From Microcoleus sp. (GTDB lineage Bacteria; Cyanobacteriota; Cyanobacteriia; Cyanobacteriales; Microcoleaceae): a stretch of 64,000 nt of DNA. The notes below the pieces were generated by a model. That model worked only from the letters and a program-made list of their open reading frames with translations, was not told the origin of the DNA and did not search any database. The DNA lies in contig JAYFMW010000027.1 in the NCBI GenBank assembly GCA_042408215.1, forward strand, positions 1 to 64,000, read 5' to 3'. The first letter of the stretch is position 1; each line of letters begins with the position of its first letter. A program made the translations under genes and the position numbers. This document shows positions 1 through 13,604 of this stretch, piece after piece.

Positions 1-1
1 C

Positions 2-251
2 GACGCAAAGGATCTCGCCCCCCTCTGGCAAGCATTCGCTGCTGAACGCGAAGCTATCGACCCCTCAATGCTAGTCAAACCTAACTTTGAATTTGAAAAA
101 TACGTCATCAATTAAATCAAAAAACCCCTTTCTTTCTGCTGGTTATTAGAACACAGCGACAGCATCATCGGTTGTCTATTTATCTACTATTACGACGAAG
201 CCCCGCCTGCAAATCTCCCCGAATATTTGATTCAGCAACACCATGAGGCAC
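2..251 (+). pseudogene. GNAT-like N-acetyltransferase fragment, 5' end outside the window, internal stop
   Basis: Frame from nt 2 reads DAKDLAPLWQAFAAERE...KYVIN*IKKPLSFCWLLEHSDSIIGCLFIYYYDEAPP with TAA at 113-115, then runs into the convergent gene. Family call is by resemblance only. Confidence 0.45.
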
Positions 252-1335
252 TCAATCAAGCTTGTGTCTATCCTCAATTTGTTCTAAATACTGCAATTCA
301 GTGGGAGTAAGAGCGGTTGCTCTTTCTAACAAGTTCAGGATTTCTACTTCAAAGGGATCTAGATTGCCTAATTTGTGAAGTCGGTCAATGCGATCGCAAA
401 TTTCTTGAAGTCCCGGTTGATTTTCGAGCGGCACGACGGTGAGAGCTGAGTGTTTGAAGGTATGCAAATTCATCGCAAGAGTAGGGATGTGCCGCATCCA
501 CACGGTAGCCGTTTTCTCGCCCACTGACTGAATGCGCCCCAACCGACCGTTAACGTCCTGGCGATCGGGCGCGTACACTTCCACCAAGGAACCAATTTTG
601 AGCGTCAGGTGGTGGGCGATGGTAGGTTCACCTTCAGTTTTTACTTTTTTGTCGCGCCCCTGTAAAGTTTTGGCAACTTTAGTTGGGCGGCTCTTAACCT
701 CAGCGGCTAAGGCAATAACTTCTTTTTTGGTCAGTCCAGCAGAGCGATTCAGTATTTTCCACTTCATATCCTCTCCTCCAATAGAACTCAGGGTGTCTAC
801 TGCTTTAGCAAACTGAGCGTCTCTGCGAATCGTTTTTGGGGATGCCAAGAAAAGCGCCCCCAACTTTTCCTCTGTTTTCAAGTGGTCAAAATGACCACTT
901 GATTTTCTGTCCCCGCCACGGGGCTGCTTTGTCAGCTCGTACCAAGTGCCGCGCAAATAGCTAACCGATTCAGACGTGAGATTGCGGCGGCCCAGTTGAT
1001 TGAGGAGCATCCAAACTTTGACGGCGTTAGGGCTGTCGAAAGACAGCAGTTTGGTAGGGGATGCCGTGCGCGCTACAAATAGCATAGCGGTTGTGACCGT
1101 CAATCAGAATTTTCTCCTCAGTCCAGACCACCAACGGGTCCCGACATCCTTCCTCAAGAATACTGGATTTTAAGGCAGCGAACTCGATCGCACTCAAAGG
1201 AGGGATGAGCGTTTGGAAATCTGGGTCAATCCGCAGGGAGTCTGCAACAGTGTGGTGGCGCTTTCGGGTTGAGCCTCGCAAAACTACTAAAGGTTGACGC
1301 TGCTCGCTGCCCGGTGTCTCCTGAGTTGGGTGCAT
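252..1335 (-). pseudogene. ParB/Srx N-terminal-domain protein, frameshifted near 1045
   Basis: ORF 1027-1335 has LIPPLS..EF..LK.SI..EGCRDPLVVW...LIDGHNRY; its natural continuation FDS..AVKVWML.NQLGRRNLT...RGGDRKS is in the other frame (252-1103). Confidence 0.7.
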
Positions 1336-1503
1336 TTCCTCGTGCCTCCTGAAATAAGTTAACCCTTAACTTGCCAGCCCCTTGCCCGACACCAGTTTGA
1401 AAAAATTGACTGGTATAGGCTTATTCCATATTTATATAGTAACATGGAAACGAATTAACAATGTGGGATAATAAAGAAAATAGAGAAAGGATAATGTTGT
1501 CAA

Positions 1504-1779
1504 ATGCCTCCAAGAAAAGGAACGCAGCTCCACCCCAACTCTCTAGCTAATTTAAAGTTAGGCGGAGGCGAACCTCGATATGAGGAGCCAAAGAAGCAAA
1601 GGAACATTCAAGTAACATCTGCGGGGTGGGAAGGTTTTCGCGCTATTGCCAGAGAGCGCGGATTGAGTTTGAGCGAGTTGATCGAGCAGATTGGTAGGCG
1701 AAAGATTACTTTGACTGACGCCGAGGAACAGAGCCGCAAACAATCCACAGCCAACCTTTCAGGTATGGCTGGGCTTTGA
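1504..1779 (+). CDS. small ribbon-helix-helix/CopG-like DNA-binding protein
   Basis: 91 aa; KKQRNIQVT (beta strand), GWEGFRAIARERGLSLSELIEQIGR (two helices). Confidence 0.6.
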   Translation: MPPRKGTQLHPNSLANLKLGGGEPRYEEPKKQRNIQVTSAGWEGFRAIARERGLSLSELIEQIGRRKITLTDAEEQSRKQSTANLSGMAGL

Positions 1780-1818
1780 ATAAAAATGTACATTGCCGTC
1801 GGATGAGGAACAAACACA

Positions 1819-2439
1819 ATGGTTCAATCACCTCCAAAACTTATAACTGTTGATGAATTTATTACTAACTACGGCGACAGCGATTGTTACGAACTCATTG
1901 ATGGTGAATTAACCGAAATGGAACCAACAGGGCCGCACGAACAAGTATCCGGGTTTCTGGGACGAAAACTGAATGTAGAAATTGACCGCCTGGATATACC
2001 CTACCTTATCCCCCCTCGCTGTCTCATCAAACTATTAGGAACAGCAACAGCCTTTCGCCCCGACGTGCTGGTATTAGATGAAACTAAATTGATCGATCAA
2101 CCTTTGTGGCAACAAGAACCAGTAATTACATCAGGTTCTTCAATTAAACTGATTGCTGAAGTCGTCAGCACCAACTGGCAAAATGATTATGCCCGTAAAG
2201 TTGAAGATTACGCTTTGCTGGGAGTGCCTGAGTATTGGATTGTTGACTATCTGGGTGTTGGTGGCAGAGAATATATTGGCAAACCAAAACAGCCGACAGT
2301 TACGATTTGTACGCTGCGAGGAGATGAGTATCAAAAACAGTTGTTTCAAAAGAGCGATCGGCTTATTTCATCAATCTTTCCTGACTTGCAATTAACCGCA
2401 CAAAAAATCTTCGCTGCAGGCAGATATGCTGCTATGTAG
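1819..2439 (+). CDS. Uma2 family endonuclease-like protein (DUF820)
   Basis: YELIDGEL.EM.P..PHE, PDV.V, LIAEVVS, DY..K..DY..LGVPEYWIVD motifs. Confidence 0.93.
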   Translation: MVQSPPKLITVDEFITNYGDSDCYELIDGELTEMEPTGPHEQVSGFLGRKLNVEIDRLDIPYLIPPRCLIKLLGTATAFRPDVLVLDETKLIDQPLWQQEPVITSGSSIKLIAEVVSTNWQNDYARKVEDYALLGVPEYWIVDYLGVGGREYIGKPKQPTVTICTLRGDEYQKQLFQKSDRLISSIFPDLQLTAQKIFAAGRYAAM

Positions 2440-2449
2440 CTTATATCTA

Positions 2450-2577
2450 GGTAACGTCGGTAGGATGGAGGAAATTCGTGCGGTGTGATCGCCATTGAAC
2501 TGGGATTGAGTCTCAACGAGTTGATAGAACAGATTGGCAGGGGTCTGATTCCCTTTGGCAATGGTGAAAAAAGTAAC
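2450..2577 (+). pseudogene. degenerate partial copy of the 1504-1779 RHH gene
   Basis: ggattgagtctcaacgagttgatagaacagattggcagg aligns with ggattgagtttgagcgagttgatcgagcagattggtagg at about 1660-1698. Confidence 0.6.
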
Positions 2578-2689
2578 TAATCGCCAGATATGGAAAGGGA
2601 GGGTTCACTCAAAAAAACTTTCTATCAACTCGTTACCAGAAGTTTTTTTGAAAAAGAACACTAATTTAGTCGTTGATTCTCCGAGCATT

Positions 2690-3235
2690 CTAACTAGCTC
2701 TCAAAATTTGCTTAATTAGGGAGACAACTTGCTGCGGTCGATGCTCAAAGTGCTTCTTGATTTGAAATTTTAACGAATCTACGGGCACATCTTTTTTGTT
2801 GATTTTAAGGCGAATATGCTCACTTCGTGGCAGAGTGGAATTGAGCGATAGAATAACGGTACGGCATTGTCGGAGAGTGAGGCTATCGACTTGAATGAAG
2901 GGTAAATTTAATGGGCCGGTATCGAGTTGAATATTAGAAGCAAATTCGGCTTTAACTTGTAGCGAAGAGGTGAGGCGCTGTTCTTCTGTGGGTTCTGGAG
3001 TTGCTGCACATTCGGCAACAGCAGGAAAGGAAGCAATTTCATTGAGAAGAGGCACAAAATCTGGGGCAAGTTCTGCTGAGAGTTTTTCAGAAGGATTCAT
3101 CCGCTTCGATGCTAACAGCGTAGCGAGATAGTGAACAATTAAGCCACCGTAACCAAAAATTACCACAGTTTCAATTGTGAGGGTGAGAAAATGCTGAATA
3201 CGTTCGTACATGATTATAATTTGCAAGTGGAACAT
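2690..3235 (-). CDS. hypothetical protein with an N-terminal hydrophobic segment
   Basis: 181-aa ORF (likely start near MYERIQ); no recognisable family. Confidence 0.55.
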   Translation of the reverse strand: MFHLQIIIMYERIQHFLTLTIETVVIFGYGGLIVHYLATLLASKRMNPSEKLSAELAPDFVPLLNEIASFPAVAECAATPEPTEEQRLTSSLQVKAEFASNIQLDTGPLNLPFIQVDSLTLRQCRTVILSLNSTLPRSEHIRLKINKKDVPVDSLKFQIKKHFEHRPQQVVSLIKQILRAS

Positions 3236-3563
3236 CTCTCAAACGCGATCGCGTTTAATATCAAAGCCTTTTAACAAAAACAGTCATTTAATTTATTGCC
3301 AAACGGTTTTACGCTGACTTATTGAGCAACCTACATTCTCGGATAAAACCAATTAACCATAACTTACGCTTTGTAACTGTGTTGCAAAGCTTTGAGATTA
3401 TTCGCCTTACTTGCGGAACCTTTGCTACGCTCGATGGTAAACTCCGTCAAGGGTTCAGAATGACATAATCAAGTTATTACTCCATAAGTGCTATTAACTA
3501 AATCCTTGTGAGAATGCGATCGCAAATATCGCAAAGGGAACTGGTGCGGTGGGTGGGCGGGCA

Positions 3564-3596
3564 AATAAAATCCTGCTCCAAGCAGGATTTTATTCC
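3564..3596 (-). terminator. intrinsic terminator-like hairpin
   Basis: aataaaatcctgct-cca-agcaggattttatt inverted repeat just downstream of ORF 3619-3978. Confidence 0.55.
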
Positions 3597-3618
3597 CTTT
3601 ATCGGGGGTCGTCATCGA

Positions 3619-3978
3619 TCACTTGACAAAATCATCAATCTCTTCATTATCGTCAGTTGCCTTTTTCTTATGAGAAGCTTTGACTGCCGATTCGATATAA
3701 CGGAAGTGCAAGTCAATCACTGCTTGCTCAGATGAAAGCCAGTAAACGTTGCTCAAGATTTCTTCAAGCATCTCGTCAGCCGAGTAGCCTTCATATTGCT
3801 TGTTAAACCAAGTATTGAACGCTTCCCAGTCAAGAGCTTTACCTTTCTGCAACTGTCGTTGTTTGGCACGTCCCGTTAACTCGCGGGCAACGTGCAAAAA
3901 CATCTCGAAGCGCTGTTCTTCAAGAGTTTCGGCAAATTGCTTTTGCATCGGAGTTGGAGCGGATTTGCGATTAGCCAT
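3619..3978 (-). CDS. hypothetical protein
   Basis: 119-aa ATG-started ORF with natural composition, followed by a hairpin. Confidence 0.7.
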   Translation of the reverse strand: MANRKSAPTPMQKQFAETLEEQRFEMFLHVARELTGRAKQRQLQKGKALDWEAFNTWFNKQYEGYSADEMLEEILSNVYWLSSEQAVIDLHFRYIESAVKASHKKKATDDNEEIDDFVK

Positions 3979-4261
3979 GATTAACCCTCAAGCGTGTTTT
4001 TTTTCACAACTAAAGCGACGGCAGTCTGCTAATTACAATTAATTCAAAAAAATTAGTGGGTGGGTGAGTGGGTAAAATTAAATTCACAACCAAGGTCAAA
4101 ATTTCCTTGATTGTGAATTTGTTGGGTCTGCTTCCCAGAGCGTCCTGATTCGGACGGTGGCGACAATCATTACCCTGAATCGCAATTCGTGGAAAAGGCC
4201 TCGATAGAGGCAAAAAAATGCTCTGCTTTTTCAGCAGAGCTTTCTAATCAAACTTTAGCAA

Positions 4262-4996
4262 TTATTCGTCGTCTTCCTCAAATTCTTCGTCTTCGTCTAA
4301 ACTAAAATCATCCTCCTCATCGTCATCATCCTCATCCTCATCGCCTTCCTCGTCTTCGTCATCTTCATCAATTTCATCGAGTATGTCATCAATTTCATCA
4401 TCTTCATCATCGAGTTCGTCGTCCTCATCGAGTTCTTCAGTATCTTCTTCAGAGGATTTAGCTAACTCGTTGCGACGCTTTAAGCTTTGAGCATTGAACT
4501 CCATTAAATCGGCAATGGCAGCTTGCGGGTTGTCAGCAATTGTATCGTAAAGTTGGATCATCGCTAAGGCAACAACTTGGACATCATACTTGAGTTCATC
4601 GGGTCGGCAAACTAGCTTGGGAAACACAGTATTGTTCCACTCTTGCCAGTCGAACTTTTTACCATTGCCATTACCGTTGCGCTTATTCAACTGAGCTTGA
4701 ATATCCAATCCCAGTTTTTCGCGAATTGCGTGGCCAACCTTTGTCGAAATACGGCTATCGCGACGCTGAATTGTCACGCCGTACTTCTTATGAATTGTAT
4801 TGCGAATCTGTTTGACTAGCTCGCCAGCAAGTTGCTCGGAGCTGAGGTTAGGTTGAGGTTTTGATTTGGCTCCATTGTTACTGCCGACAGTTTGACTGTT
4901 CTGTTTTTCAGGTGGCTTAGATTTAGCAGGCACTGGTGAATGAGAGCGAATGGGAGTGGCGGCGGTTTGCTTTTTACTTGTGACCATGATTGACAA
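4262..4996 (-). CDS. hypothetical protein, basic N-terminal region and long Asp/Glu tail
   Basis: 244 aa; the last ~60 residues are almost all D/E; downstream hairpin gctctgct...agcagagc at about 4220-4240. Confidence 0.7.
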   Translation of the reverse strand: MSIMVTSKKQTAATPIRSHSPVPAKSKPPEKQNSQTVGSNNGAKSKPQPNLSSEQLAGELVKQIRNTIHKKYGVTIQRRDSRISTKVGHAIREKLGLDIQAQLNKRNGNGNGKKFDWQEWNNTVFPKLVCRPDELKYDVQVVALAMIQLYDTIADNPQAAIADLMEFNAQSLKRRNELAKSSEEDTEELDEDDELDDEDDEIDDILDEIDEDDEDEEGDEDEDDDDEEDDFSLDEDEEFEEDDE

Positions 4997-5137
4997 TTTA
5001 ACTTGCTTAACATCAATTTATGAGTGCCGTTAGGCACAATTACCCCCTCCAGTTGAGGGGGCGTATTTCGCTCATTAGCAGGAAGTTAAGTTTTAATTAC
5101 CTTAGTTAAATTATTATGTTCAACGTCGTCTCTTTAG

Positions 5138-5989
5138 TTGTATCAACTCATGAAACTTTTCAATACTTGGTCTAAGTTAAGAGTCATTCAAACTCCCATA
5201 GTTGCCCTTGAATATTACAGTGCCGATCGCCAAAAAATCTTGTCATCATTTCATCAGTACGCCAGTGAGTGTTGTTTACCTGTTTATTATTGGAATCCCG
5301 GCTATGCAACTCTTCAACAGGTGCGGTGTTTGGATAAAAATCTCCCGAAATTAGGTTGTCATTCAGACTTGACAAGCGTTTCAGATATTTCGGAAACGTA
5401 TAACAGTGAATGCGTCCTATGCAAAACTGAGCTATCTGTCGAGAGTGATGTCCTGCAATTTCTGCTGGAAAATGACTGCCCCGGTATCTTTTTGTTAGAA
5501 GATATTTTGGAATCAGAGAGTAGCGAACAGCCTCTTATCCGCCGTTATTCTCAATTAGCTAACGCATTCTTTGACTTGAAAGGGCGTTGGGCCAACCAAT
5601 ATTGGGTACTGCTGGGCGAGTACATCCAATTGCCATCAAAGCTAAGTCCATTAATTCCTCTACTCAAATGTCCGTTACCCGATCGCTTTGAAGTCGAAGT
5701 TCTTGTAGATAAGTTTTGCGATCGCAATTGTTCCCTTGATTTTGGTTTAGATGCGGTAGCTGCTAAAAAGCGGCTGGCTGTTTCTAGTCTAGGGCTGCCA
5801 ACTGCTGAAATTGAATTGGTGTTAGATCGATCGCTCTCTGTGACCGCTTCAGTTGTCCAAATCGCACAGTTGGTATTGGAGCATAAAATATCGCAACTTC
5901 GAGACCAGGGGTTGGAGTTCATTGCTTCTCCCGACGTGCCTCATGCTGGCGGTTTAGATTTATTAGACGCTTATTTGAGCGAAGTATAG
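5138..5989 (+). pseudogene. Ycf46-like AAA ATPase, N-terminal half, truncated by IS630
   Basis: Ends ...K...LRDQGLEFIASPDVPHAGGLDLL, the segment that precedes the P-loop in this family; no Walker A; the stop codon comes from the IS end. Confidence 0.7.
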
Positions 5990-6959
5990 CAACCGCCTTG
6001 GCGGTTAGGATGCAAGCTCTAGAAGATCTTCGATCGCATCACGTAAACAATCAAACCGATCTAATTGTTTGCGGATGCGACTTTTGAGCCACGACCAGCA
6101 TTTTTCAATTCTGTTCAAATCTGGGGAGTACGGCGGTAAATACAACAATTTACACCCTACACTTTGAATTAATTCCTCAATTCTGCCACCTTTATGAAAC
6201 GTGGCATTATCCATCACTACCACCTGTCCTGTCACAAGTGTTGGCAGTAAACAAGTTTCTAGCCAAATTTCAAAAACTGTTCGATTACACGCTCCAACAA
6301 CGGTAAAAGGGGCGAGGATTTTTTGGTTACATAGAGCAGCAATCATATTTACCCTATCCTCACGTCGCCCTGATTTGAGTGCATGAAACCGTTGGCATGA
6401 CGGGGTTCCAACCATAATCATACTGGTCTCTATTATCCATGCCAGATTCATCAACATAGACAATCTGAGCCGAGGGAATGGTGGACAATTCGGTTACAAA
6501 AGCCTGCCTTTTGACTTCAGCCCGCGCCCGGTAGCCCTAGGTCTTTTTTTTCGAGTAAAACCAATTTTTTTCAAAGCCCGCGAGATTGTGCGATCGCTAA
6601 TTTCTCCATCCCAAAGTGAGGCCATTTCAACTTGAGTTTTATCCCCATGAGTCTTGACAAACTCACGAAACTTCTCCCAATCAGTAATTTTATGACCGTT
6701 ACCGCGAGGCTGATTCGGTAATGCTAAAAAGTCTCCTGTTTCCGTTTGTCGCTTCAACCATAAGCTGATTGTGTTGCAACTGATACTGAATAGTATACTC
6801 GCTTCACTAATCTTTAAGCCATCTAGTTTGATAGCTTGAATGACTTTCTGACGTAGGTCATAACTGTACGGTTTTGGCATGAGTCGTGCCATCGGGTAAA
6901 CAGCATAATGGATAAGAGACTACTTCCACTTTACACCATAACCGCCTTGGCGGTTGCTA
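5987..6959 (-). mobile_element. IS630-family insertion sequence, inactivated transposase
   Basis: Terminal IRs TAGCAACCGCC(TT/AA)GGCGGTTA, TA at 5985-86 and 6960-61. ORF1 6494-6892 is HTH; A8 slippery run at about 6544-6551; DDE half has VYVDESG, VMDNATFH, LPPYSPDLNRIE. Extra TAG in KKT*GY and a second frameshift near 6400. Confidence 0.92.
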
Positions 6960-7088
6960 TATAACTGGCACGGCCGCATCGTTGAAATTCACACAAGCAT
7001 CAGTTGCAGGGTTGACTGGCAAGAGCGCGAAAAACACAAGGGCGGTCGGATAATCTCAATGCTCTTCTGTGACCTGCGGAAAATTTAG
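6960..7088 (+). pseudogene. C-terminal remnant of an unidentified gene
   Basis: Reads YNWHGRIVEIHTSISCRVDWQEREKHKGGRIISMLFCDLRKI* directly after the IS; followed by hairpin atccccctcaattgggggat + T run at about 7119-7142. Confidence 0.45.
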
Positions 7089-7395
7089 CCACTACCCGAC
7101 AACTGACGACTCAATTCCATCCCCCTCAATTGGGGGATTTTTGTGTCTACAGGTTTTGTAGACAATCTGATAGCAGTGTAGGGAGCCTATTGAGTCCTTA
7201 AAAAGTGTCTCAGTTTTGAGACATTTTTTACAGACGTTGCTAACAACGCAGTCCTCGAAAGTCTCAAGCCAATTGCTAGCAACGGTTGCAGGCGTTGACA
7301 CTAAAGGTGTACAGTGACCTAGATTTATTAGTTCTGCTTATAATGCTATTGATACAAAAGTATTATATTTTATTATGTTTTGCACTGTCTACGTG

Positions 7396-7435
7396 CGTCT
7401 ACTTATGTCTACCTGTATGTAGACATAAGTAGACG
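7396..7435. repeat. perfect inverted repeat, 17-bp arms of TAGAC units
   Basis: cgtctacttatgtctac-ctgtat-gtagacataagtagacg. Confidence 0.9.
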
Positions 7436-7540
7436 GTACTTTAATGGCTCGTGTTAGTCGATTTAGATAAGATTTAGTTATATTTTTTGTAACTATAATT
7501 GATTATTATTACTTATGAATTGCGCCCACTAGATAACCAC

Positions 7541-7716
7541 TAGACAGATGCTAGACATAATGCTAGTATCTAACTAGACAGACGCTAGACACAATGCTAG
7601 TATCTAACTAGACAGACGTTAGACACAATCCTAGTATCTAACTAGACAGACGCTAGACACAATGCTAGTATCTAACTAGACAGATGCTAGACATGATGTT
7701 GGTATCTAACTAGACA
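7541..7716 (+). repeat. iteron-like tandem array, 5 x 34 bp plus a partial copy
   Basis: Units start at 7541, 7575, 7609, 7643, 7677 (7711 partial); consensus TAGACAGAYGCTAGACACAATGCTAGTATCTAAC with CTAG about every 11-12 bp. Confidence 0.95.
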
Positions 7717-7737
7717 ATCACTAAACAGGTATTAGAC

Positions 7738-8031
7738 ATGACAGACAGATGCCAGCTTAACTTGAGATTGGACGGCCGCCGAGACTTGCTCGAAACCATT
7801 AAAGATGTCGCAGCAGCAGAGGGTTTGAGCGTCAATGCTTGGGTAGTGCGAACTTTAGAGCAAGCTGCCAACCAGGCAATAGCAGCGCCGCCAATTCAAC
7901 CTCAGACACAAGTGTCCGAAATTTCGGACATTGAATCAGTGCTAGACAAGTTGCTAGATACTAAGCTAGACACACTGCTAGCGGTTAAATTAGCAGGGAT
8001 TGAAGAACGCTTGGGAAAATTGAAAGCCTGA
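7738..8031 (+). CDS. ribbon-helix-helix (Arc/HicB-like) DNA-binding protein; candidate -1 frameshift extension to 8204 or 8357
   Basis: QLNLRL (beta strand), LLETIKDVAAAEGLSVNAWVVRTLEQAA (helices); ends at G GGA AAA followed by a hairpin. Confidence 0.75.
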   Translation: MTDRCQLNLRLDGRRDLLETIKDVAAAEGLSVNAWVVRTLEQAANQAIAAPPIQPQTQVSEISDIESVLDKLLDTKLDTLLAVKLAGIEERLGKLKA

Positions 8032-8370
8032 GCGATGGCAACAATGAATCGCTCAGGCAAGAATTGAAGGCCGCCAATAAGCAGCTTGCAGAATGGGACA
8101 AGGAGCTTGACCAATTGCACGCCCGCAACGGTGACTTAGGGTTGCAGGTGCAGATGTTGCAATCAGAGCTTGAGGCGGTCAGGACCGATCGCCCTGAAAT
8201 TTAAGAATCCGTCCCGGCCGTCGCAGATTTTCCTGAACCAAGTGACCTACTTAACCAGTTGAGGACGCGGCGCAAAAAGTCGAGGGCGGACTTGGCGGAT
8301 ATTGAGGCAATCTTAGAAATACTTTTGTCCTGGACCGATCGCCCTGAGAAGGGGTAGAGGGAAAACAAAA

Positions 8371-8414
8371 AGTGGTATATATGAGTGGTTTATATACCAC
8401 TCATATATACCACT
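8371..8414. repeat. perfect inverted repeat, 19-bp arms, next to the tRNA 3' end
   Basis: agtggtatatatgagtggt-ttatat-accactcatatataccact. Confidence 0.9.
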
Positions 8415-8481
8415 GCCTATAAAACTGCACGTATGGCTAAAAAAGCGGATAGCCTCAAAGCCTTGTGGAGTAAGGGATGTA

Positions 8482-8568
8482 CGGAGAGGGTGGGATTTGA
8501 ACCCACGTTAAAGTTGCCTTTAAAGTAGATTTCGAGTCTACCGCATTCAACCGCTCTGCCACCTCTCC
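8482..8568 (-). tRNA. tRNA-Ser(CGA)
   Basis: GGAGAGG acceptor stem, GTAGA-CT CGA AA-TCTAC anticodon arm, long variable arm, GGTTCAAATCC T-loop; CCA not encoded. Confidence 0.96.
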
Positions 8569-8745
8569 AATTGATTGACCATTTGATCATAATCGCACGA
8601 CTGAAGCTAAAAATCAACCATAAATTTCAGGTTGCTGTTGCTTCGCGACTCCTGGAATCGCATAATGGTGCGATCGAGCCACAAGTCTGGTTGAGATGTT
8701 CGCTGTTTCGTATCTTACCGCACAGCGCGCCACATTTGCCAATCT

Positions 8746-11367
8746 TCACAAAAAAGAAGTCTGATTTTCTTGAGATTCCAGGGTAGTCTTAAATCCCGCA
8801 GCGGGAGTCCATTGGATGGCTCCGTCGCGCCCAGTCCAAAAGAGCTGGGTTTTGCTTTGGTGCAGTTGGGCTGCGGTTGAGGAGTCAATTTCGTCAGCAG
8901 ATGCGATCGCCAATTTTGGCCCAACTGCCGCCAATAACTCCGCCGTCAACGTTTTTCCAGACCACCACAGCACTTGAGCTGGCTTCAAAGTTCCCGTTGC
9001 TACCAATTTTTTTTGGGCTTCGGGTGCGATCTCACCAAGCATCAACCAACTTCGTGAAGCGAAGCTATCCCGAAGGGAATCGCCCATCAGCAATTCTACC
9101 ACCGGGATTTCCGCATTCACCAACTGCAACCGCACAGAGCCCAGATTAATTGTGCTGTTAGTTTCTAAAGGAAAGTAAACCCCTTGGCGAGATTGCACCG
9201 CAGTCATCAATTCCTGACGGCTGGCATAGTGAATTTGTTTGGGAGCGCTGTTATCATAAAATGTTTGAATTGGCAAGCGTTCTAATAATTTTCCCCAACC
9301 TGCACTCAAACCTAAATGAGGATGGGTGGCGATCGCAAAATTCACAGAATTAACTGCTTGTTTCTGCAAAAAAGGTAGCACTGTAAACCTAACTGTATTT
9401 TCATCACCGGTATTAATTAGCGCCACTTTTCCTCGGTCTTGAATCACCAAAACAGGCTCGCCTGATGTCGCCAGTAAAGTAACTTGAAATAAAGATGCCT
9501 GACTGTGCCAAGCTGGCAAAACTATGATAGCAATTCCCGCCACAATCGCCAGCGGTAAAATTGAGGCAGATGAAAAAATCGGCAGGGAAATAAATCTGCT
9601 TTTTTCCATCTTCTCTCTCCCATCTTCCTTCTCCCATCTTCCTTCTTCCTTCCCGGCGTTAAATCCGTTAAATCCGTTACATAATCCGTTGCCGAACTTC
9701 CCTCTACCCAGCCAAACCCAGCCAATTAAACTATAAAGTACGATTAGTTGTAACTCCGATACTTGACCGACAGCTACCGAATTACCGGGTAACTGCGAGA
9801 AATATTGAGCGATCGCAATTAACCCATGTGCCGGATAGTCTAGCAGTTGCGCTAACCCACTGCCAGCCAGCGGAAAAATCAATCCAGCTAAAGCACTAAT
9901 CATCCCCCCAATACTCAAAATCCACAGTAAAGGAGCGGCAATAATATTGACTAAAATGCAATAAGGAGATACCACACTAAAAACGTAAAGTAGCAGCGGT
10001 AGCACCCAAACTGAAGCAGCGATAGGAACCACAAAAATAGAAGCGATCGCCGGTGGCATCCACTCCAATTTTGCCATCATCGGGGGTGTGGTCACTATCA
10101 ACCCCAAAGTCGCCAAAAAACTCAGTTGAAAACCTAAATCCCAAATCCATAAAGGATTAACCAATAGTAAAACTATCCCAGCGATTAACAGCAATCCCAG
10201 GGGCTTAACTTCTCGCTTCAGCAGCAAAGCAAATAGCGTTCCAAATCCCATCAAAGCCGCGCGGCATACTGAAGCTTCAAAGCCAGTTAATCCCACTAGC
10301 AAAAATAAAGCACCGCAGCCAAAGCTAAATTGTAACTGTTTGGAAAAACCTCTGGTTAAAGCTAGAACTAAAGCCAAAACCATAGAAACTTGAGTGCCCG
10401 AAGCTGCGATCGCGTGGGCTAATCCAACCTGCACAAAGTAGTCGCGGATGTTGTAAGGTAAATCTACGGCTTGCTTACCCAGGGCGATCGCACTAATCAG
10501 CGGGCCTTCGGGAACATTTAAGTGCAGTAGTTGCGATCGGACAATCCGCTGTCGCATTCTATAAATTGTTGGTGCCGACATCTCGCTTGACTCAGAGAAA
10601 GCAGCCGTAGCTTGCTTGTCACGTCGATTGACAGCGGCGATCGCATTTTCTCTCGTCCAGTCAATTTGGCGGCCTTTGAGCCCTACAAAAGCCCCTTCTC
10701 TGGCTAAATATCTTTGAAAATCAAAAGCCCCCGGATTCGATGGCGGCTGCGGTTTGTAGAGAGAACCTGTAACTGCGATCGTATTTTCTGGGTACAAACC
10801 TGTTGCTTGCAACAAAGGTACTGTGACGTAGAGTTTCCCGGATACTTCGCGATTTACTACTACTCCTCCCTCGCCACCGTTAATTTCGCTAACTAGATCG
10901 GTTTCCAGCCAAAATTGCGATCGCCCCGATCGAGTTATGCGTGGGCTACTCACAACTCTACCGCGAACAGTCACCGCGACTTCTTCAGTATTACCAACCG
11001 CAGGAATCAATTTGCTGATATCATTAATTGCTGGTTGGGGCGATCGGATTTGAAAATAAACGCTAGCGAGAAATCCCGTCAAACCTGCGAGTAACCACAC
11101 CCATTTCGACCTCGGCAGCATTTGATAAAAACTCAATTCTTCGGTTTTTTCTAAGGAAGAATCAGCAGGATTTTTGGTGGTTCGGCTGCGTCTTTTTTTA
11201 GTCTTTTTGACCGAAGTTCGAGTATATTTTCGCAAGAATTTCGGCATGGCGATCGCCGCGACAACTCCCAAAGCAAGTATACCGAAACCACCCCAATGCA
11301 CCGCTGTAGAAATCAATCCCAAAAGGTAGGCAAGACAGAAAATGACACCCGTTACTTGATTCATCAA
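8746..11367 (-). CDS. comEC: ComEC/Rec2 competence protein
   Basis: DUF4131-like region (NPGAFDFQRYL), GLAHAIAASG.QV, RAALM, NPLWIWDLGFQLSFLAT; degenerate beta-lactamase-like C-terminus. Confidence 0.95.
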   Translation of the reverse strand: MMNQVTGVIFCLAYLLGLISTAVHWGGFGILALGVVAAIAMPKFLRKYTRTSVKKTKKRRSRTTKNPADSSLEKTEELSFYQMLPRSKWVWLLAGLTGFLASVYFQIRSPQPAINDISKLIPAVGNTEEVAVTVRGRVVSSPRITRSGRSQFWLETDLVSEINGGEGGVVVNREVSGKLYVTVPLLQATGLYPENTIAVTGSLYKPQPPSNPGAFDFQRYLAREGAFVGLKGRQIDWTRENAIAAVNRRDKQATAAFSESSEMSAPTIYRMRQRIVRSQLLHLNVPEGPLISAIALGKQAVDLPYNIRDYFVQVGLAHAIAASGTQVSMVLALVLALTRGFSKQLQFSFGCGALFLLVGLTGFEASVCRAALMGFGTLFALLLKREVKPLGLLLIAGIVLLLVNPLWIWDLGFQLSFLATLGLIVTTPPMMAKLEWMPPAIASIFVVPIAASVWVLPLLLYVFSVVSPYCILVNIIAAPLLWILSIGGMISALAGLIFPLAGSGLAQLLDYPAHGLIAIAQYFSQLPGNSVAVGQVSELQLIVLYSLIGWVWLGRGKFGNGLCNGFNGFNAGKEEGRWEKEDGREKMEKSRFISLPIFSSASILPLAIVAGIAIIVLPAWHSQASLFQVTLLATSGEPVLVIQDRGKVALINTGDENTVRFTVLPFLQKQAVNSVNFAIATHPHLGLSAGWGKLLERLPIQTFYDNSAPKQIHYASRQELMTAVQSRQGVYFPLETNSTINLGSVRLQLVNAEIPVVELLMGDSLRDSFASRSWLMLGEIAPEAQKKLVATGTLKPAQVLWWSGKTLTAELLAAVGPKLAIASADEIDSSTAAQLHQSKTQLFWTGRDGAIQWTPAAGFKTTLESQENQTSFL

Positions 11368-11434
11368 AACGTAAAATACTATAGCTATTATATCCCGACT
11401 TCTGTAAGAAGTCGGGGATCTGAGTATTCTCTCT

Positions 11435-11470
11435 TGTCCCCCCCTTAAGAAGGGGGGTTAGGGGGGATCG
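11435..11470. repeat. CCCCCTTAAGAAGGGGG palindromic dispersed repeat
   Basis: Same core recurs at about 47784-47885 and in each unit of the 129-bp array. Confidence 0.85.
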
Positions 11471-11488
11471 AAGAGTTAGTTAACTCAC

Positions 11489-11968
11489 CTAAATAGACAA
11501 CCCCAATTTTAAACCGAAAGCCGCGTGCACCACCATAAGTGCCAGGGCTGTCGTGCCCAAATAAGCATGAACCGCCCGCAGTGCCAGTTTGTCGCCCCCA
11601 AAACCAGTTAGCGAAATCAAGCTGTTAACAGCCAGCAAAACCAGCACTGTCGAACCAGTCCAAAAATGTGGACTTTCCATGACTGGCTGGTGCTGCATCA
11701 CCAGCGACAGCAAGCCGCCAGTATAACCCAAAGCTATGAACAAAAACATCCACGGTGCAAGTTTGCGGTGCTCCGATCGACTTTTGAGTGCCACATCTTT
11801 ATCGGTGGCTAAACGTCCCTGCCATCCGGTATAACCGACAAAACTGCCCATCGCCACAACCACGATCCCCATCATTACCGGATGTCCCCAATGAGTGATG
11901 GGTTCGGGAATGCCCAGACTGCGAAATTGACTGGCAATTGGCTCTAACAGTTCACTTAGATTGATCAT
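11489..11968 (-). CDS. DUF4079 family membrane protein
   Basis: Four hydrophobic helices with conserved His (WGHP, EHRKL, SPHFWTG, HAYLG). Confidence 0.85.
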   Translation of the reverse strand: MINLSELLEPIASQFRSLGIPEPITHWGHPVMMGIVVVAMGSFVGYTGWQGRLATDKDVALKSRSEHRKLAPWMFLFIALGYTGGLLSLVMQHQPVMESPHFWTGSTVLVLLAVNSLISLTGFGGDKLALRAVHAYLGTTALALMVVHAAFGLKLGLSI

Positions 11969-12202
11969 TTGCTTGAGATTCCCAACTTGGCGATCGCTAA
12001 TTTTGATTTAATTAATAATTTACTCTAAAATAGTAATAGTGCGATCGCGATCGCCCCAATCAAATAGCCCTTTGAGCGCCCAAAAAAATACTTTGACTTG
12101 TTGGTATGTTATCAAAGAGAGTCATCTATCCAAAAGCATAGATTTACACAAAACTTAGCCGGCTAAGGCCGACTGCGAGATTTTGACCAAAAAATTGGGA
12201 TA

Positions 12203-12370
12203 CAAGCCCCGTCCTTTGAGGACGGCTTTTTGCTAGAATAAATTAAGTCAACCTAGGGCATTGGGAGACTCTAAACGGACGTGGAGCGATGGTAAGACTA
12301 CCGCTTGCGGAGCGCGTTGCTATGAAGCGTCAAGGAATCCTCGGACTTGATAGACGGGGAGGTATGTCAA
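12203..12370 (+). mobile_element. miniature non-autonomous IS200/IS605 derivative (left end + right end/omegaRNA-like region, no ORF)
   Basis: Left hairpin caagccccgtcctttgaggacggcttt; right part ...gaagcgtcaaggaatcctcggac...cggggaggtatgTCAA resembles the right ends at 13613-13646 and 62768-62800. Confidence 0.7.
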
Positions 12371-12557
12371 AACACTACGAATACAGTTTTCAATCACTGT
12401 TTCCAGCCAGAAGTCTGTATAAAATAAAAGAGCGGGACACAGGAGAAGTGTATTGCCTAGCCTCAGCAGGGGAGCTGCCATTTCAGTTAATTTGAGCTGA
12501 GCAGTATCCAATCTTTTGTCCCCACACCAGTAAGAGGAAGCCATTGCAGACGGCGCT

Positions 12558-13604
12558 ATGATTAAGCCTTACCGAATTTTGCAGCGCATTGCTCAACTGC
12601 TCGCCTACGCCTACTCAGCACTGATTGCCGGCTATCTGATTCTGAGACTGAGCTTTTGGGACAGACTGTGGCCGATTTCCTTGGCCGGGGATTTTGTTCC
12701 TTGGATTTTCTTGCCAATCTTCCTCCTGCCAATTCTCGGGTTTTTGATCGTCAAGAAACGCCGGTTCGCCATTGTTTCATCTGTGGCTTGCATCTGTCTG
12801 CTGGGTTGGCTGCACGTCACCTACTTTTCTCCCCAGCCGGCGAACATCAGTAACTCCCAGCCAACCCTCAAGGTTTTTTCTCTCAACATCGGCTGGCATC
12901 ACAAATCCCCACAAGCTTTGGTTAGCCTAATTCAGTCAGAAAAACCAGACCTCATTTGTTTACAAGAAATTAAGGAGGATTACGCCAAAGAAGTATTCTC
13001 TAAGTTGGCCGCATTATACCCGTACCACCAGGGGCGCGGATACCATGTGATTCTCAGCAGATATCCCATTCGCTCTTTCCAAACGTTACACCTAGCCGGT
13101 GGGAACGAACCACAGGAACGAGCCATGATCGAAATGAACCAGCAAGACGTAGTTCTTTATAACATTTCAACAACCCCACCCTGGTTTCGCCGGCATAAAA
13201 TTTTGCCTTTCCTCAAAATCCCAGTTTACGAGTACGGCGACCGACCGGCACAAATTCAAGATTTAGTGTGGCGACTCCAGAAAGAAACGCTGCCGGTTAT
13301 TGCCGCCGGGGACTTTAATTTTACAGAACAGTCTCAAGACTACTATTATTTGAGAGCGGTTATGCAAGATGCTTTCCGAACAGCAGGACTGGGTTTTGGC
13401 TTTACTTTTCCTCACGGGTGGGAGCTGAATTTACTGGTTAAACAGATCAACTGGAAAATAACTTTTCCCCTGGTGAGGCTTGACTATGTTTGGTATTCTC
13501 GGCACTGGGGGGCGAAATCAGCGCAGGTTTTACCGGCAATCGATTCAGAGCATCTGCCGGTGGGGGCAGAACTGCGGTTGCAACCGGAATCTGGACGAGT
13601 GTAG
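12558..13604 (+). CDS. endonuclease/exonuclease/phosphatase family membrane protein
   Basis: N-terminal TM helices; SLNI, PDLICLQE, AGDFN, LDYVW, SEHLPV motifs. Confidence 0.9.
   Translation: MIKPYRILQRIAQLLAYAYSALIAGYLILRLSFWDRLWPISLAGDFVPWIFLPIFLLPILGFLIVKKRRFAIVSSVACICLLGWLHVTYFSPQPANISNSQPTLKVFSLNIGWHHKSPQALVSLIQSEKPDLICLQEIKEDYAKEVFSKLAALYPYHQGRGYHVILSRYPIRSFQTLHLAGGNEPQERAMIEMNQQDVVLYNISTTPPWFRRHKILPFLKIPVYEYGDRPAQIQDLVWRLQKETLPVIAAGDFNFTEQSQDYYYLRAVMQDAFRTAGLGFGFTFPHGWELNLLVKQINWKITFPLVRLDYVWYSRHWGAKSAQVLPAIDSEHLPVGAELRLQPESGRV

Follow-up and report, generated by a model that had tools for sequence, protein, structure and literature searches.

Introduction

To our knowledge, apart from insertion sequences, dnaX and the tail genes of phages, bacteria offer few well-supported cases of −1 frameshifting. 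In the insertion sequences IS3/IS911 (OrfA-OrfAB) and IS1 (InsA-InsAB'), the shift takes place at an X XXY YYZ heptamer that is followed by a structure, and the short form can modulate the long form. The slip site of the lambda G/GT tail-assembly chaperone, G GGA AAG, is near-identical to the one described below, and the dnaX frameshift is known to have an upstream Shine-Dalgarno (SD)-like stimulator. The ribbon-helix-helix (RHH) centromere binders ParR and ParG, as well as pSK1 Par and KfrA, pair a small DNA-binding domain, encoded beside direct repeats, with an extension that is helical or a coiled coil; we know of no frameshift in these systems. The present work concerns a stretch of 64,000 nucleotides from Microcoleus sp. 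(the window), which is the first 64 kb of contig JAYFMW010000027.1 (C27) in a 7.36-Mb assembly (GCA_042408215.1). A short gene in the window encodes a putative Arc-like RHH protein, and comparison with its relatives indicates that the gene very probably carries a genuine −1 programmed ribosomal frameshift, kept in a mobile-element gene family of filamentous cyanobacteria.

Frameshifting on mobile DNA has been reviewed for the IS1, IS3, IS5 and IS630 families (PMC5009743, as far as its available text goes). According to the accessible part of another report (PMC4755241), the regulator FseA (msi172-msi171) of ICEMlSymR7A is made from two open reading frames (ORFs) joined by frameshifting, and both single-ORF and two-ORF frameshift variants occur among its homologs. 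The same text describes FseA as a DUF2283 activator of excisionase in proteobacterial integrative and conjugative elements (ICEs), produced by a +1 shift at UUUC with no hairpin and an efficiency of 4–13%. Tycheposons of marine picocyanobacteria are described, in the available part of a preprint (bioRxiv 10.1101/2020.12.28.424599), as elements with a tyrosine recombinase and a primase-helicase that insert adjacent to tRNA genes, form adjacent tandem copies and decay into islands.

Slip Site and Hairpin in the Window

Translation of the window and comparison with homologs define a 0-frame ORF at positions 7738–8031 of the forward strand, whose 97-aa product ends in ...AGIEERLGKLKA (EERLGKLKA). 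The 0-frame codons at the slip site are TTG (8011), GGA (8014) and AAA (8017); the slippery heptamer G GGA AAA (8013–8019, forward strand), which covers Gly93-Lys94, is therefore in X XXY YYZ phase. The phase of the heptamer was 0 in all instances checked, and its start and the stop codon were 16 nt apart in all but two of 78 unique sequences (76). A 6-nt spacer (8020–8025, forward strand) leads to a predicted frameshift-stimulating RNA hairpin of 11 bp with an 11-nt loop (8026–8058, forward strand), which was recognized by folding and covariation. Its arms, GCCTGAGCGAT (8026–8036) and ATCGCTCAGGC (8048–8058), are perfectly complementary, and the 0-frame TGA (8029–8031) lies inside the 5' arm. 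The hairpin alone folded at −21.1 kcal/mol (z −6.19), and none of 200 shuffles was as good. Folding was less striking for the wider 96-nt stretch (z −2.09; 9 of 200 shuffles as good). An intrinsic terminator was considered for the same hairpin and rejected because no U-tract was found 3' of it in the window.

The −1 frame of the window opens only four codons 5' of the heptamer. From 8019 it reads IESLSDGNNESLRQELKAANKQ...EAVRTDRPEI, i.e., IESLSDGNNESLRQELK... for 61 coiled-coil-like codons (8019–8201, forward strand; supported by translation, homologs and dN/dS), up to a TAA at 8202–8204. The remainder of the −1 ORF (8205–8357, forward strand) comprises 50 codons and a TAG (8355–8357) and continues as ESVPAVADFPEPSDLLNQLRTRRKKSRADLADIEAILEILLSWTDRPEKG. 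This part holds the conserved C-terminal motif FPEPxDLLNQLxxRRKKSxADLADxEAILEIL, which also ends the natural fused proteins described below. In the window subtype there is no ATG, GTG or TTG between the upstream stop of the −1 frame and a TTG 15 codons past the slip site. The original prediction, made from the letters of the window, had described this same layout, and the coordinates and phase of the heptamer, spacer and stem with its embedded stop, as well as the path of the −1 frame through the TAA and on to 8357, were all recovered as described.

The −1 ORF also contains an exact 16-nt direct repeat, GGACCGATCGCCCTGA, at 8182–8197 and 8332–8347, 150 nt apart. Both copies encode TDRPE and have a CGATCG core, which we take to be HIP1-like. 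The second copy stands in place of the usual C-terminal tail of the homologs.

Conservation of the Heptamer in Relatives

A total of 110 loci, 30 from genomes and 80 from metagenomes, were compared. The metagenome loci were fetched with two peptide patterns, one of which was the C-terminus itself, and loci with the N-terminal pattern were retrievable independently of the C-terminal one. Both patterns are degenerate at the DNA level, and codon choice was therefore not biased by the C-terminal search. An RHH N-terminal motif together with a 0-frame stop within the locus was present in 78 loci; among the remaining 32, 6 ran off the contig and 26 were without the RHH N-domain. The GGGAAAA heptamer was found in phase in 69 of the 78, three (L022, L023, and L086) were in-frame fusions, and six had other arrangements. 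In these six, L014 has A GGA AAA, L079 and L080 have an early stop, and L024, L093, and L094 end in LLGE(S/F)xAA* without a heptamer.

The subtype formed by L024, L093, and L094 ends in ...AELLGE(S/F)xAA* at GCC TGA, and a −1 shift is needed to enter its conserved ESLR... frame. It has CTG GGG GAG in the heptamer's place and an imperfect stem, and many database proteins begin at its downstream TTG (LQADVGWVEQ...). The junction may have decayed, it may allow slippage on G GGG in the P site only, or the two frames may be expressed separately.

Codon usage at the slip site was examined in 97 instances that were picked by peptide motif alone and reduced to 30 unique 33-mers, with the codon usage of the window as background. 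The glycine was GGA in 30 of 30 (background 0.28), the lysine was AAA in 30 of 30 (background 0.77), and the leucine before the heptamer glycine ended in G in 29 of 30 (background 0.44). The 0-frame stop was TGA in all 30. Flanking codons varied synonymously, with GAG (20) and GAA (10) for glutamate and four codons for arginine. Judged from the invariance of these synonymous sites beside freely varying neighbors, the heptamer is kept beyond what the protein requires. Among the glutamate codons, GAG-GAA gives an SD-like GAGGA in 20 of the 30 unique sequences, and the string lies about 7 nt 5' of the heptamer in many relatives, e.g., L003 and L009; the window slip site is preceded by GAAGA.

Covariation of the Hairpin

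Covariation was assessed in alignment A2, which holds 61 distinct sequences and 12 pairs (732 cells). Standard pairing was present in 94.1% of the cells, and five of the 12 pairs had changed on both sides. Pair 16-56 was GC in 23 sequences, UA in 15 and AU in 13; pair 19-53 was CG in 41 and UA in 20; pair 24-48 was UA in 26, CG in 24 and UG in 10; and pair 25-47 was GC in 44, GU in 14 and AU in 3. Pair 23-49 showed a single AU. None of 500 shuffles attained the covariation score or the percentage paired, a figure that is not a probability, as the shuffle ignores relatedness. For that reason the stronger argument comes from the multiple pair types and from a slid control, in which moving the 3' partner by one to three columns lowered pairing to 19–41%. 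The loops are unrelated across subtypes (GGCAACGATGA, TTCCCCTGAGT, GTCGATCGCAGAGC and others), and four divergent hairpins all folded at −20 to −24 kcal/mol. G-U pairs were common in the aligned stems and fit an RNA of the sense strand rather than a DNA-level site. The hairpin is, on the evidence of this alignment, a conserved RNA structure.

Selection on the −1 Frame

Seven of the 69 frameshift-type loci ran off the end of the locus, and the other 62 were open in the −1 frame for 20–262 codons. Most complete extensions had 100–262 codons; conspicuously short ones were confined to the window (61) and L011 (20). The strict C-terminal pattern LLNQLKxRRKKS...ILEIL was matched in 46 of the 62, and several others carried variants of it (e.g., L006, L010, and L013). 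The dN/dS ratio was calculated for 23 unique genome extensions after the first 15 codons, which include the hairpin, had been dropped. The median in the −1 frame was 0.21 over 217 pairs (median dS 0.76). Pairs of the same length gave 0.22 in the −1 frame, whereas the two remaining frames gave 0.90 and 1.53. These ratios indicate that the −1 frame is under purifying selection.

The TAA at 8202–8204 (forward strand), identified as premature by homolog alignment, is a lesion private to the window copy. In 18 aligned homologs the position is occupied by K (13), T (3) or Q (2), and contigs of relatives have C at 8202, which gives CAA. The suggestion that the TAA was a lesion of this copy is thus borne out. 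With the TAA in place, the long product of the window would stop at 155 aa and be without the C-terminal module.

A 287-nt contig of a relative from RNA libraries covers 7889–8175 without an indel, which is weak evidence. At most 0.21 of the sampled words were matched in the RNA-library runs, and their contigs derive from relatives; such consensus contigs are silent on transcription level, strand and minority slippage, and the upstream parts that they leave uncovered are uninformative.

Natural Single-ORF Fusions

Relatives in which both frames are joined in a single ORF include L022, L023, and L086 and the proteins P0121–P0125, P0157, and P0228. The L022 and L023 proteins have 280 aa and carry the name Tychonema. 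Their genes are without the heptamer and the 5' arm and retain ...ESLRLEL... and the C-terminal motif in frame. The sequence of P0228, AIEERLGKIEGLSE (...AIEERLGKIEGLSETPAPEPLKP), follows the 0 frame up to Gly-Lys and then passes directly into residues of the −1 frame. Its junction, ...ERLGK-IEGLSE..., is precisely what a slip on G GGA AAA would be expected to produce. P0228 is known from two metagenome contigs, with a slight chance of an assembly error in the A-run. The same junction as that of P0228 occurs in several independent clusters with another N-domain (...GKSEGL(G/S)DSPELLKP). According to the original prediction, homologs fused in frame would refute frameshifting. Such fusions exist, yet they support the frameshift product. 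The heptamer and the stem are still present in 69 of the 78 relatives, and one of the fusions has the very junction that was predicted.

Taken with the fused homologs, the comparative tests also back the claim that a single gene yields two DNA-binding isoforms, one short and one long. Each comparison that the original prediction had proposed for homologs came out in favor of a frameshift cassette: the heptamer is conserved in phase in 69 of 78 loci and constrained at its synonymous sites, compensatory changes affect five of 12 stem pairs, and the −1 frame has a dN/dS of 0.21.

The RHH Protein Family and its Range

The RHH proteins consist of a putative Arc-like RHH N-terminus (residues ~4–45), a variable Pro/Gln linker and LD-repeat helices, followed by the invariant C-terminus EERLGKL(K/R/S)A. 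In a Pfam scan of the 97-aa protein, Arc scored 16.9 bits and fell short of the cutoff of 20.4; TacA1 and HicB were likewise below threshold. A family profile (A1) matched Arc repressor chains in the PDB at E-values of 8e-4 to 0.02, with an alignment that was convincing over the strand and first helices (QLNLRL...LSVNAWV vs. QFNLRW...RSVNSEI in Arc). An AF2 model of the fused homolog P0121 consisted essentially of one 149-residue helix and short helices; residues 2–29 were modeled as helix and not strand (pLDDT 62–84), in a monomer without a dimer partner. An ESM Atlas search with P0121 gave no informative family, and NikA-like and RHH rows at 0.78–0.81 were leads only. For the extension, Pfam gave only generic coiled-coil matches below threshold and no match for the C-terminal motif.

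Homologs of the RHH protein numbered 356 at E ≤ 0.01. The 120 listed have 72–115 aa, mostly 97, and 116 of them end in ERLGKL(R/S/K/G/N)A; the names on the protein matches are Microcoleus and Tychonema. The gene was present in 24 of 144 genomes of the window's taxonomic family, with up to four copies per genome. Carriers were confined to one genus (23 of 78 genomes besides that of the window), and none was found in 65 genomes of 14 other genera.

The same cassette and extension also stand behind at least four other types of N-terminal domain. These are a MSQSQVVSFRASGHFLNWIEAQ... family, represented by some 15 loci in metagenomes; in L112, a KKHIAVYLDKAVEDAL RHH-like domain that carries SNTPYNIP repeats; a domain of ~140 aa (MAIPSV.../...SFRFE...) that also occurs in single-ORF proteins of 350–450 aa; and a different RHH, with a 32-aa extension only, in a second cyanobacterial family. 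Of 401 genomes drawn from the whole phylum, 17 matched a pattern describing the cassette, and none matched the reversed control pattern. Matches were found in 13 of 19 genomes of the window's genus besides the window and in 3 of 45 of the second family, whose stem adds another pair type (GCCTGAGAGA/TCTCTCAGGC).

The motif of the iterons described below recurs within the coding regions of these genes. CTAGAC(A) in the linker of the window's RHH gene (7940–7990) encodes Leu-Asp repeats, and the number of LD repeats differs between homologs. Paralogous MSQSQVV... genes (L100–L118) contain TGTCTAC five to nine times and GTAGACA three to four times in their coding sequence, where GTCTAC/GTAGAC corresponds to Val-Ser-Thr and Val-Asp.

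Mobile Element Context

Directly 5' of the RHH start lie about five direct repeats of 34 bp (7505–7727, forward strand), each with two CTAGACA; the array may serve as a binding site or an origin. The window holds 18 copies of CTAGACA vs. 4.75 expected, and 12 of the 18 are located within 7540–7972. Most relatives also have TAGAC clusters 5' of the gene, where 700 nt can hold up to 15 copies on the forward strand. At 7396–7435, a perfect inverted repeat of 17 nt with GTCTAC/GTAGAC is followed by an AT-rich stretch (~7460–7520). The layout resembles an iteron origin or an operator, for which it is a candidate only.

In relatives, a small element ends with the frameshift gene, which follows TAGAC-rich repeats. 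The element order is a tyrosine integrase, two small unknown genes, a primase-helicase of 900–1000 aa and sometimes a paralogous small DNA-binding gene. The integrase has Phage_integrase and Arm-DNA-bind_2 domains, and the primase-helicase has either DUF3854, D5_N and DUF5906 or DUF3987. L033 has the Phage_integrase and Arm-DNA-bind_2 pair with the DUF3854, D5_N and DUF5906 set, and L034 has DUF3987. In L033 (7600–18700), a block of primase-helicase, small RHH-like gene and frameshift gene occurs twice in tandem, 7.1 kb apart, with an integrase and two small ORFs between the two blocks. The arrangement suggests that a ~7-kb element integrated repeatedly or was amplified in tandem. No ParA/ParM-type partition NTPase was found by Pfam among the neighbors scanned in the window, L033 and L034.

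The window retains only part of such an element. A tblastn search with replicases of 904 and 1004 aa from relatives (DUF3854, D5_N, DUF5906) matched only their last 42–47 residues in the window, and this C-terminal tail of a primase-helicase lies at 6945–7085 on the forward strand. The replicase gene is truncated by an insertion sequence of the IS630 family (6005–6892, reverse strand), assigned by Pfam from ORFs with HTH_Tnp_IS630 and DDE_3. The transposase is split into an HTH ORF (6494–6892) and a DDE_3 ORF (6005–6463) with a short ORF between them, and is either broken or itself dependent on frameshifting. No integrase was found among the scanned ORFs of window positions 1–13,600. The element of the window is a relic; the cassette itself is intact.

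On the other side of the RHH gene, a tRNA-Ser(CGA) gene (8481–8569, reverse strand) has its 3' end facing the RHH gene and is therefore a probable integration site. The same tRNA-Ser/comEC junction adjoins the RHH gene in L034 and L035. No 12-mer of the tRNA-Ser recurs in window positions 1–8440, the contig starting at window base 1. A near-perfect palindrome with 22-nt arms, 95% complementary and without a spacer, lies between the extension and the tRNA-Ser (8371–8414) and could be an att-related or terminator-like site. Elsewhere in the window, and unrelated to the frameshift, a second small RHH_4-like ORF (1504–1779; E 0.0011, below threshold) stands directly 5' of a gene for a putative endonuclease of the Uma2 family (1819–2439).

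Proposed Mechanism and Alternative Explanations

In the proposed mechanism, ribosomes translating the Arc-like RHH frame would meet, at Gly93-Lys94 (G GGA AAA), a hairpin of 11–12 bp that begins 5–6 nt downstream. Most would terminate three codons on, at the TGA within the hairpin, and release the 97-aa RHH protein. A fraction would slip back by one base (GGA to GGG, AAA to AAA) and continue in the −1 frame, giving a long product of RHH, coiled coil and conserved basic C-terminal module with ~200–350 aa in intact relatives. The likeliest function of the protein is iteron binding; both isoforms would recognize the TAGACA iterons next to their own gene, and oligomerization or partner contacts might be added by the long form. 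By analogy with IS3/IS911 OrfA/OrfAB and FseA, the slip rate may set the ratio of a form that only binds DNA to an effector form. This ratio could control replication, maintenance or expression of the integrase/primase-helicase element at tRNA-Ser. The role in segregation, copy control or excision control that had been proposed for the gene fits this context, with iterons and a primase-helicase upstream and an integrase in relatives.

A further proposal, which we regard as doubtful, is that the cassette and its coiled-coil/basic C-terminal module form a portable recoding unit that recombination has placed behind at least five unrelated DNA-binding N-domains on integrative-replicative elements of cyanobacteria. 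Such a one-gene, two-isoform device, with a short form that binds iterons and a long form that bridges them or recruits a host or replicase partner, might set the copy number or inheritance of the excised element without a partition NTPase.

Several observations weigh against frameshifting as the explanation of the locus. The compared sequences are kin, from one main genus and metagenomes, and the counts therefore overstate independence; one of the metagenome retrieval patterns was the C-terminus itself. L014 departs from the heptamer with A GGA AAA. L024, L093, and L094 require a −1 shift yet are without a canonical heptamer, and they have either decayed or express the downstream ORF in another way. 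The window copy is broken, with its TAA and the loss of the replicase. A TTG that overlaps the stop (TTGA) occurs in the GCTTGA subtype, where termination-reinitiation could operate instead of or alongside slippage. This last point belongs to a reading in which the RHH protein and an independently translated coiled-coil protein are separate, the second being started by termination-reinitiation at (C/T)TGA or at the TTG that lies 15 codons further on, and in which the heptamer is no more than conserved Gly-Lys codons. Gene callers do treat the downstream ORF as a gene of its own that starts at a TTG, and L024, L093, and L094 keep that ORF without a heptamer, as this reading would allow. In the window subtype, however, the overlapping codon is CTG, a poor initiator that is buried in the 11-bp hairpin. 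The synonymous sites of GGA, AAA and the G before them do not vary. The residues from the slip site to the TTG are conserved and are also found within natural single-ORF proteins, and P0228 joins the frames exactly at GK-IE. Two separate proteins are thus an improbable explanation.

Transcriptional slippage at GGGAAAA, by which the polymerase and not the ribosome would change the frame, would account for a frame change located at a short homopolymer run. Known bacterial transcriptional slippage tracts are far longer than four A. Such slippage has no need of a covarying hairpin at frameshift spacing, and the RNA-library contigs cross the site without an indel, although a consensus would miss minority species; this explanation is given very little weight. 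Just as little is given to a dead split gene that arose from an inherited frameshift mutation, with the junction and extension unused, or to a hairpin that serves as a terminator or DNA-level site. The window copy is clearly decaying (TAA, IS630 insertion, lost replicase), as a dead gene would be, but the extension has a dN/dS of 0.21 across 23 unique sequences with dS ~0.76, and the cassette is retained behind five different N-domains and in two families. A terminator or DNA site is opposed by the absence of a U-tract after the hairpin and by G-U pairs that fit sense-strand RNA. Programmed −1 frameshifting is favored over all of these because the comparative evidence, beyond folding alone, is decisive.

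Comparison with Known Systems

No report of this frameshift was found in searches of the full-text literature. In the available text of the recoding review (PMC5009743), cyanobacteria are mentioned only for insertion sequence elements and a carboxysome case, and G GGA AAA is not present in the main text of Sharma et al. (2014; PMC4066793), figures and supplements aside. The words "frameshift" and "ribbon" have no occurrence in the available text of the tycheposon preprint (10.1101/2020.12.28.424599). The mechanism is textbook; the gene family, the host group and the modular use appear to be unreported. The comparative proof is unusually clean, as it combines covariation, synonymous-site constraint and natural fusions with the exact junction. 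Natural variants in loops, stems, extension lengths and N-domains make the family suited to the study of frameshift efficiency and evolution. The finding also corrects the annotation of hundreds of database entries, in which the gene appears as two "hypothetical" genes, the second often mislabeled "chromosome segregation ATPase". It points to an uncharacterized control protein of tRNA-integrating replicative elements in mat-forming cyanobacteria, and is thus of relevance to the recoding and mobile-element fields.

As in IS3/IS911 and IS1, the −1 slip is placed near the end of a short upstream ORF on mobile DNA, and the short and long products share an N-terminal part for DNA binding and oligomerization. 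The parts themselves differ, being G GGA AAA, RHH, and coiled coil with a short basic module here and A AAA AAG, HTH and DDE transposase there, and Pfam and ESM Atlas searches found no sequence relationship to the IS3/IS911/IS1 proteins. Like lambda G/GT and E. coli dnaX (tau/gamma), classic cases whose two products occur in a fixed ratio, the locus very probably represents a bacterial −1 frameshift with two N-terminally coincident products, in gene families of different kind and function. The shifted product is the longer one here and in G/GT, and the shorter one in dnaX. The position of a DNA-binding gene next to a conserved repeat array follows the layout of ParR/ParG, pSK1 Par and KfrA, with binding predicted here; unlike ParR/ParG-type partition, no ParA/ParM-type NTPase gene is present in the neighborhoods examined.

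As far as the available text on FseA goes, the coexistence of single-ORF and two-ORF variants on an integrative element is common to both systems, whereas the shift here is −1 with a hairpin and concerns an RHH and coiled-coil protein of cyanobacteria. With tycheposons and PICI-like elements, as described in the accessible part of the preprint, the elements share a recombinase and primase-helicase in L033 (a DUF3987 replicase in L034), adjacent tandem copies in L033, a tRNA neighbor and decay in the window. The hosts of tycheposons are, in the same text, marine picocyanobacteria, whereas those of the elements described here are mat-forming filamentous cyanobacteria.

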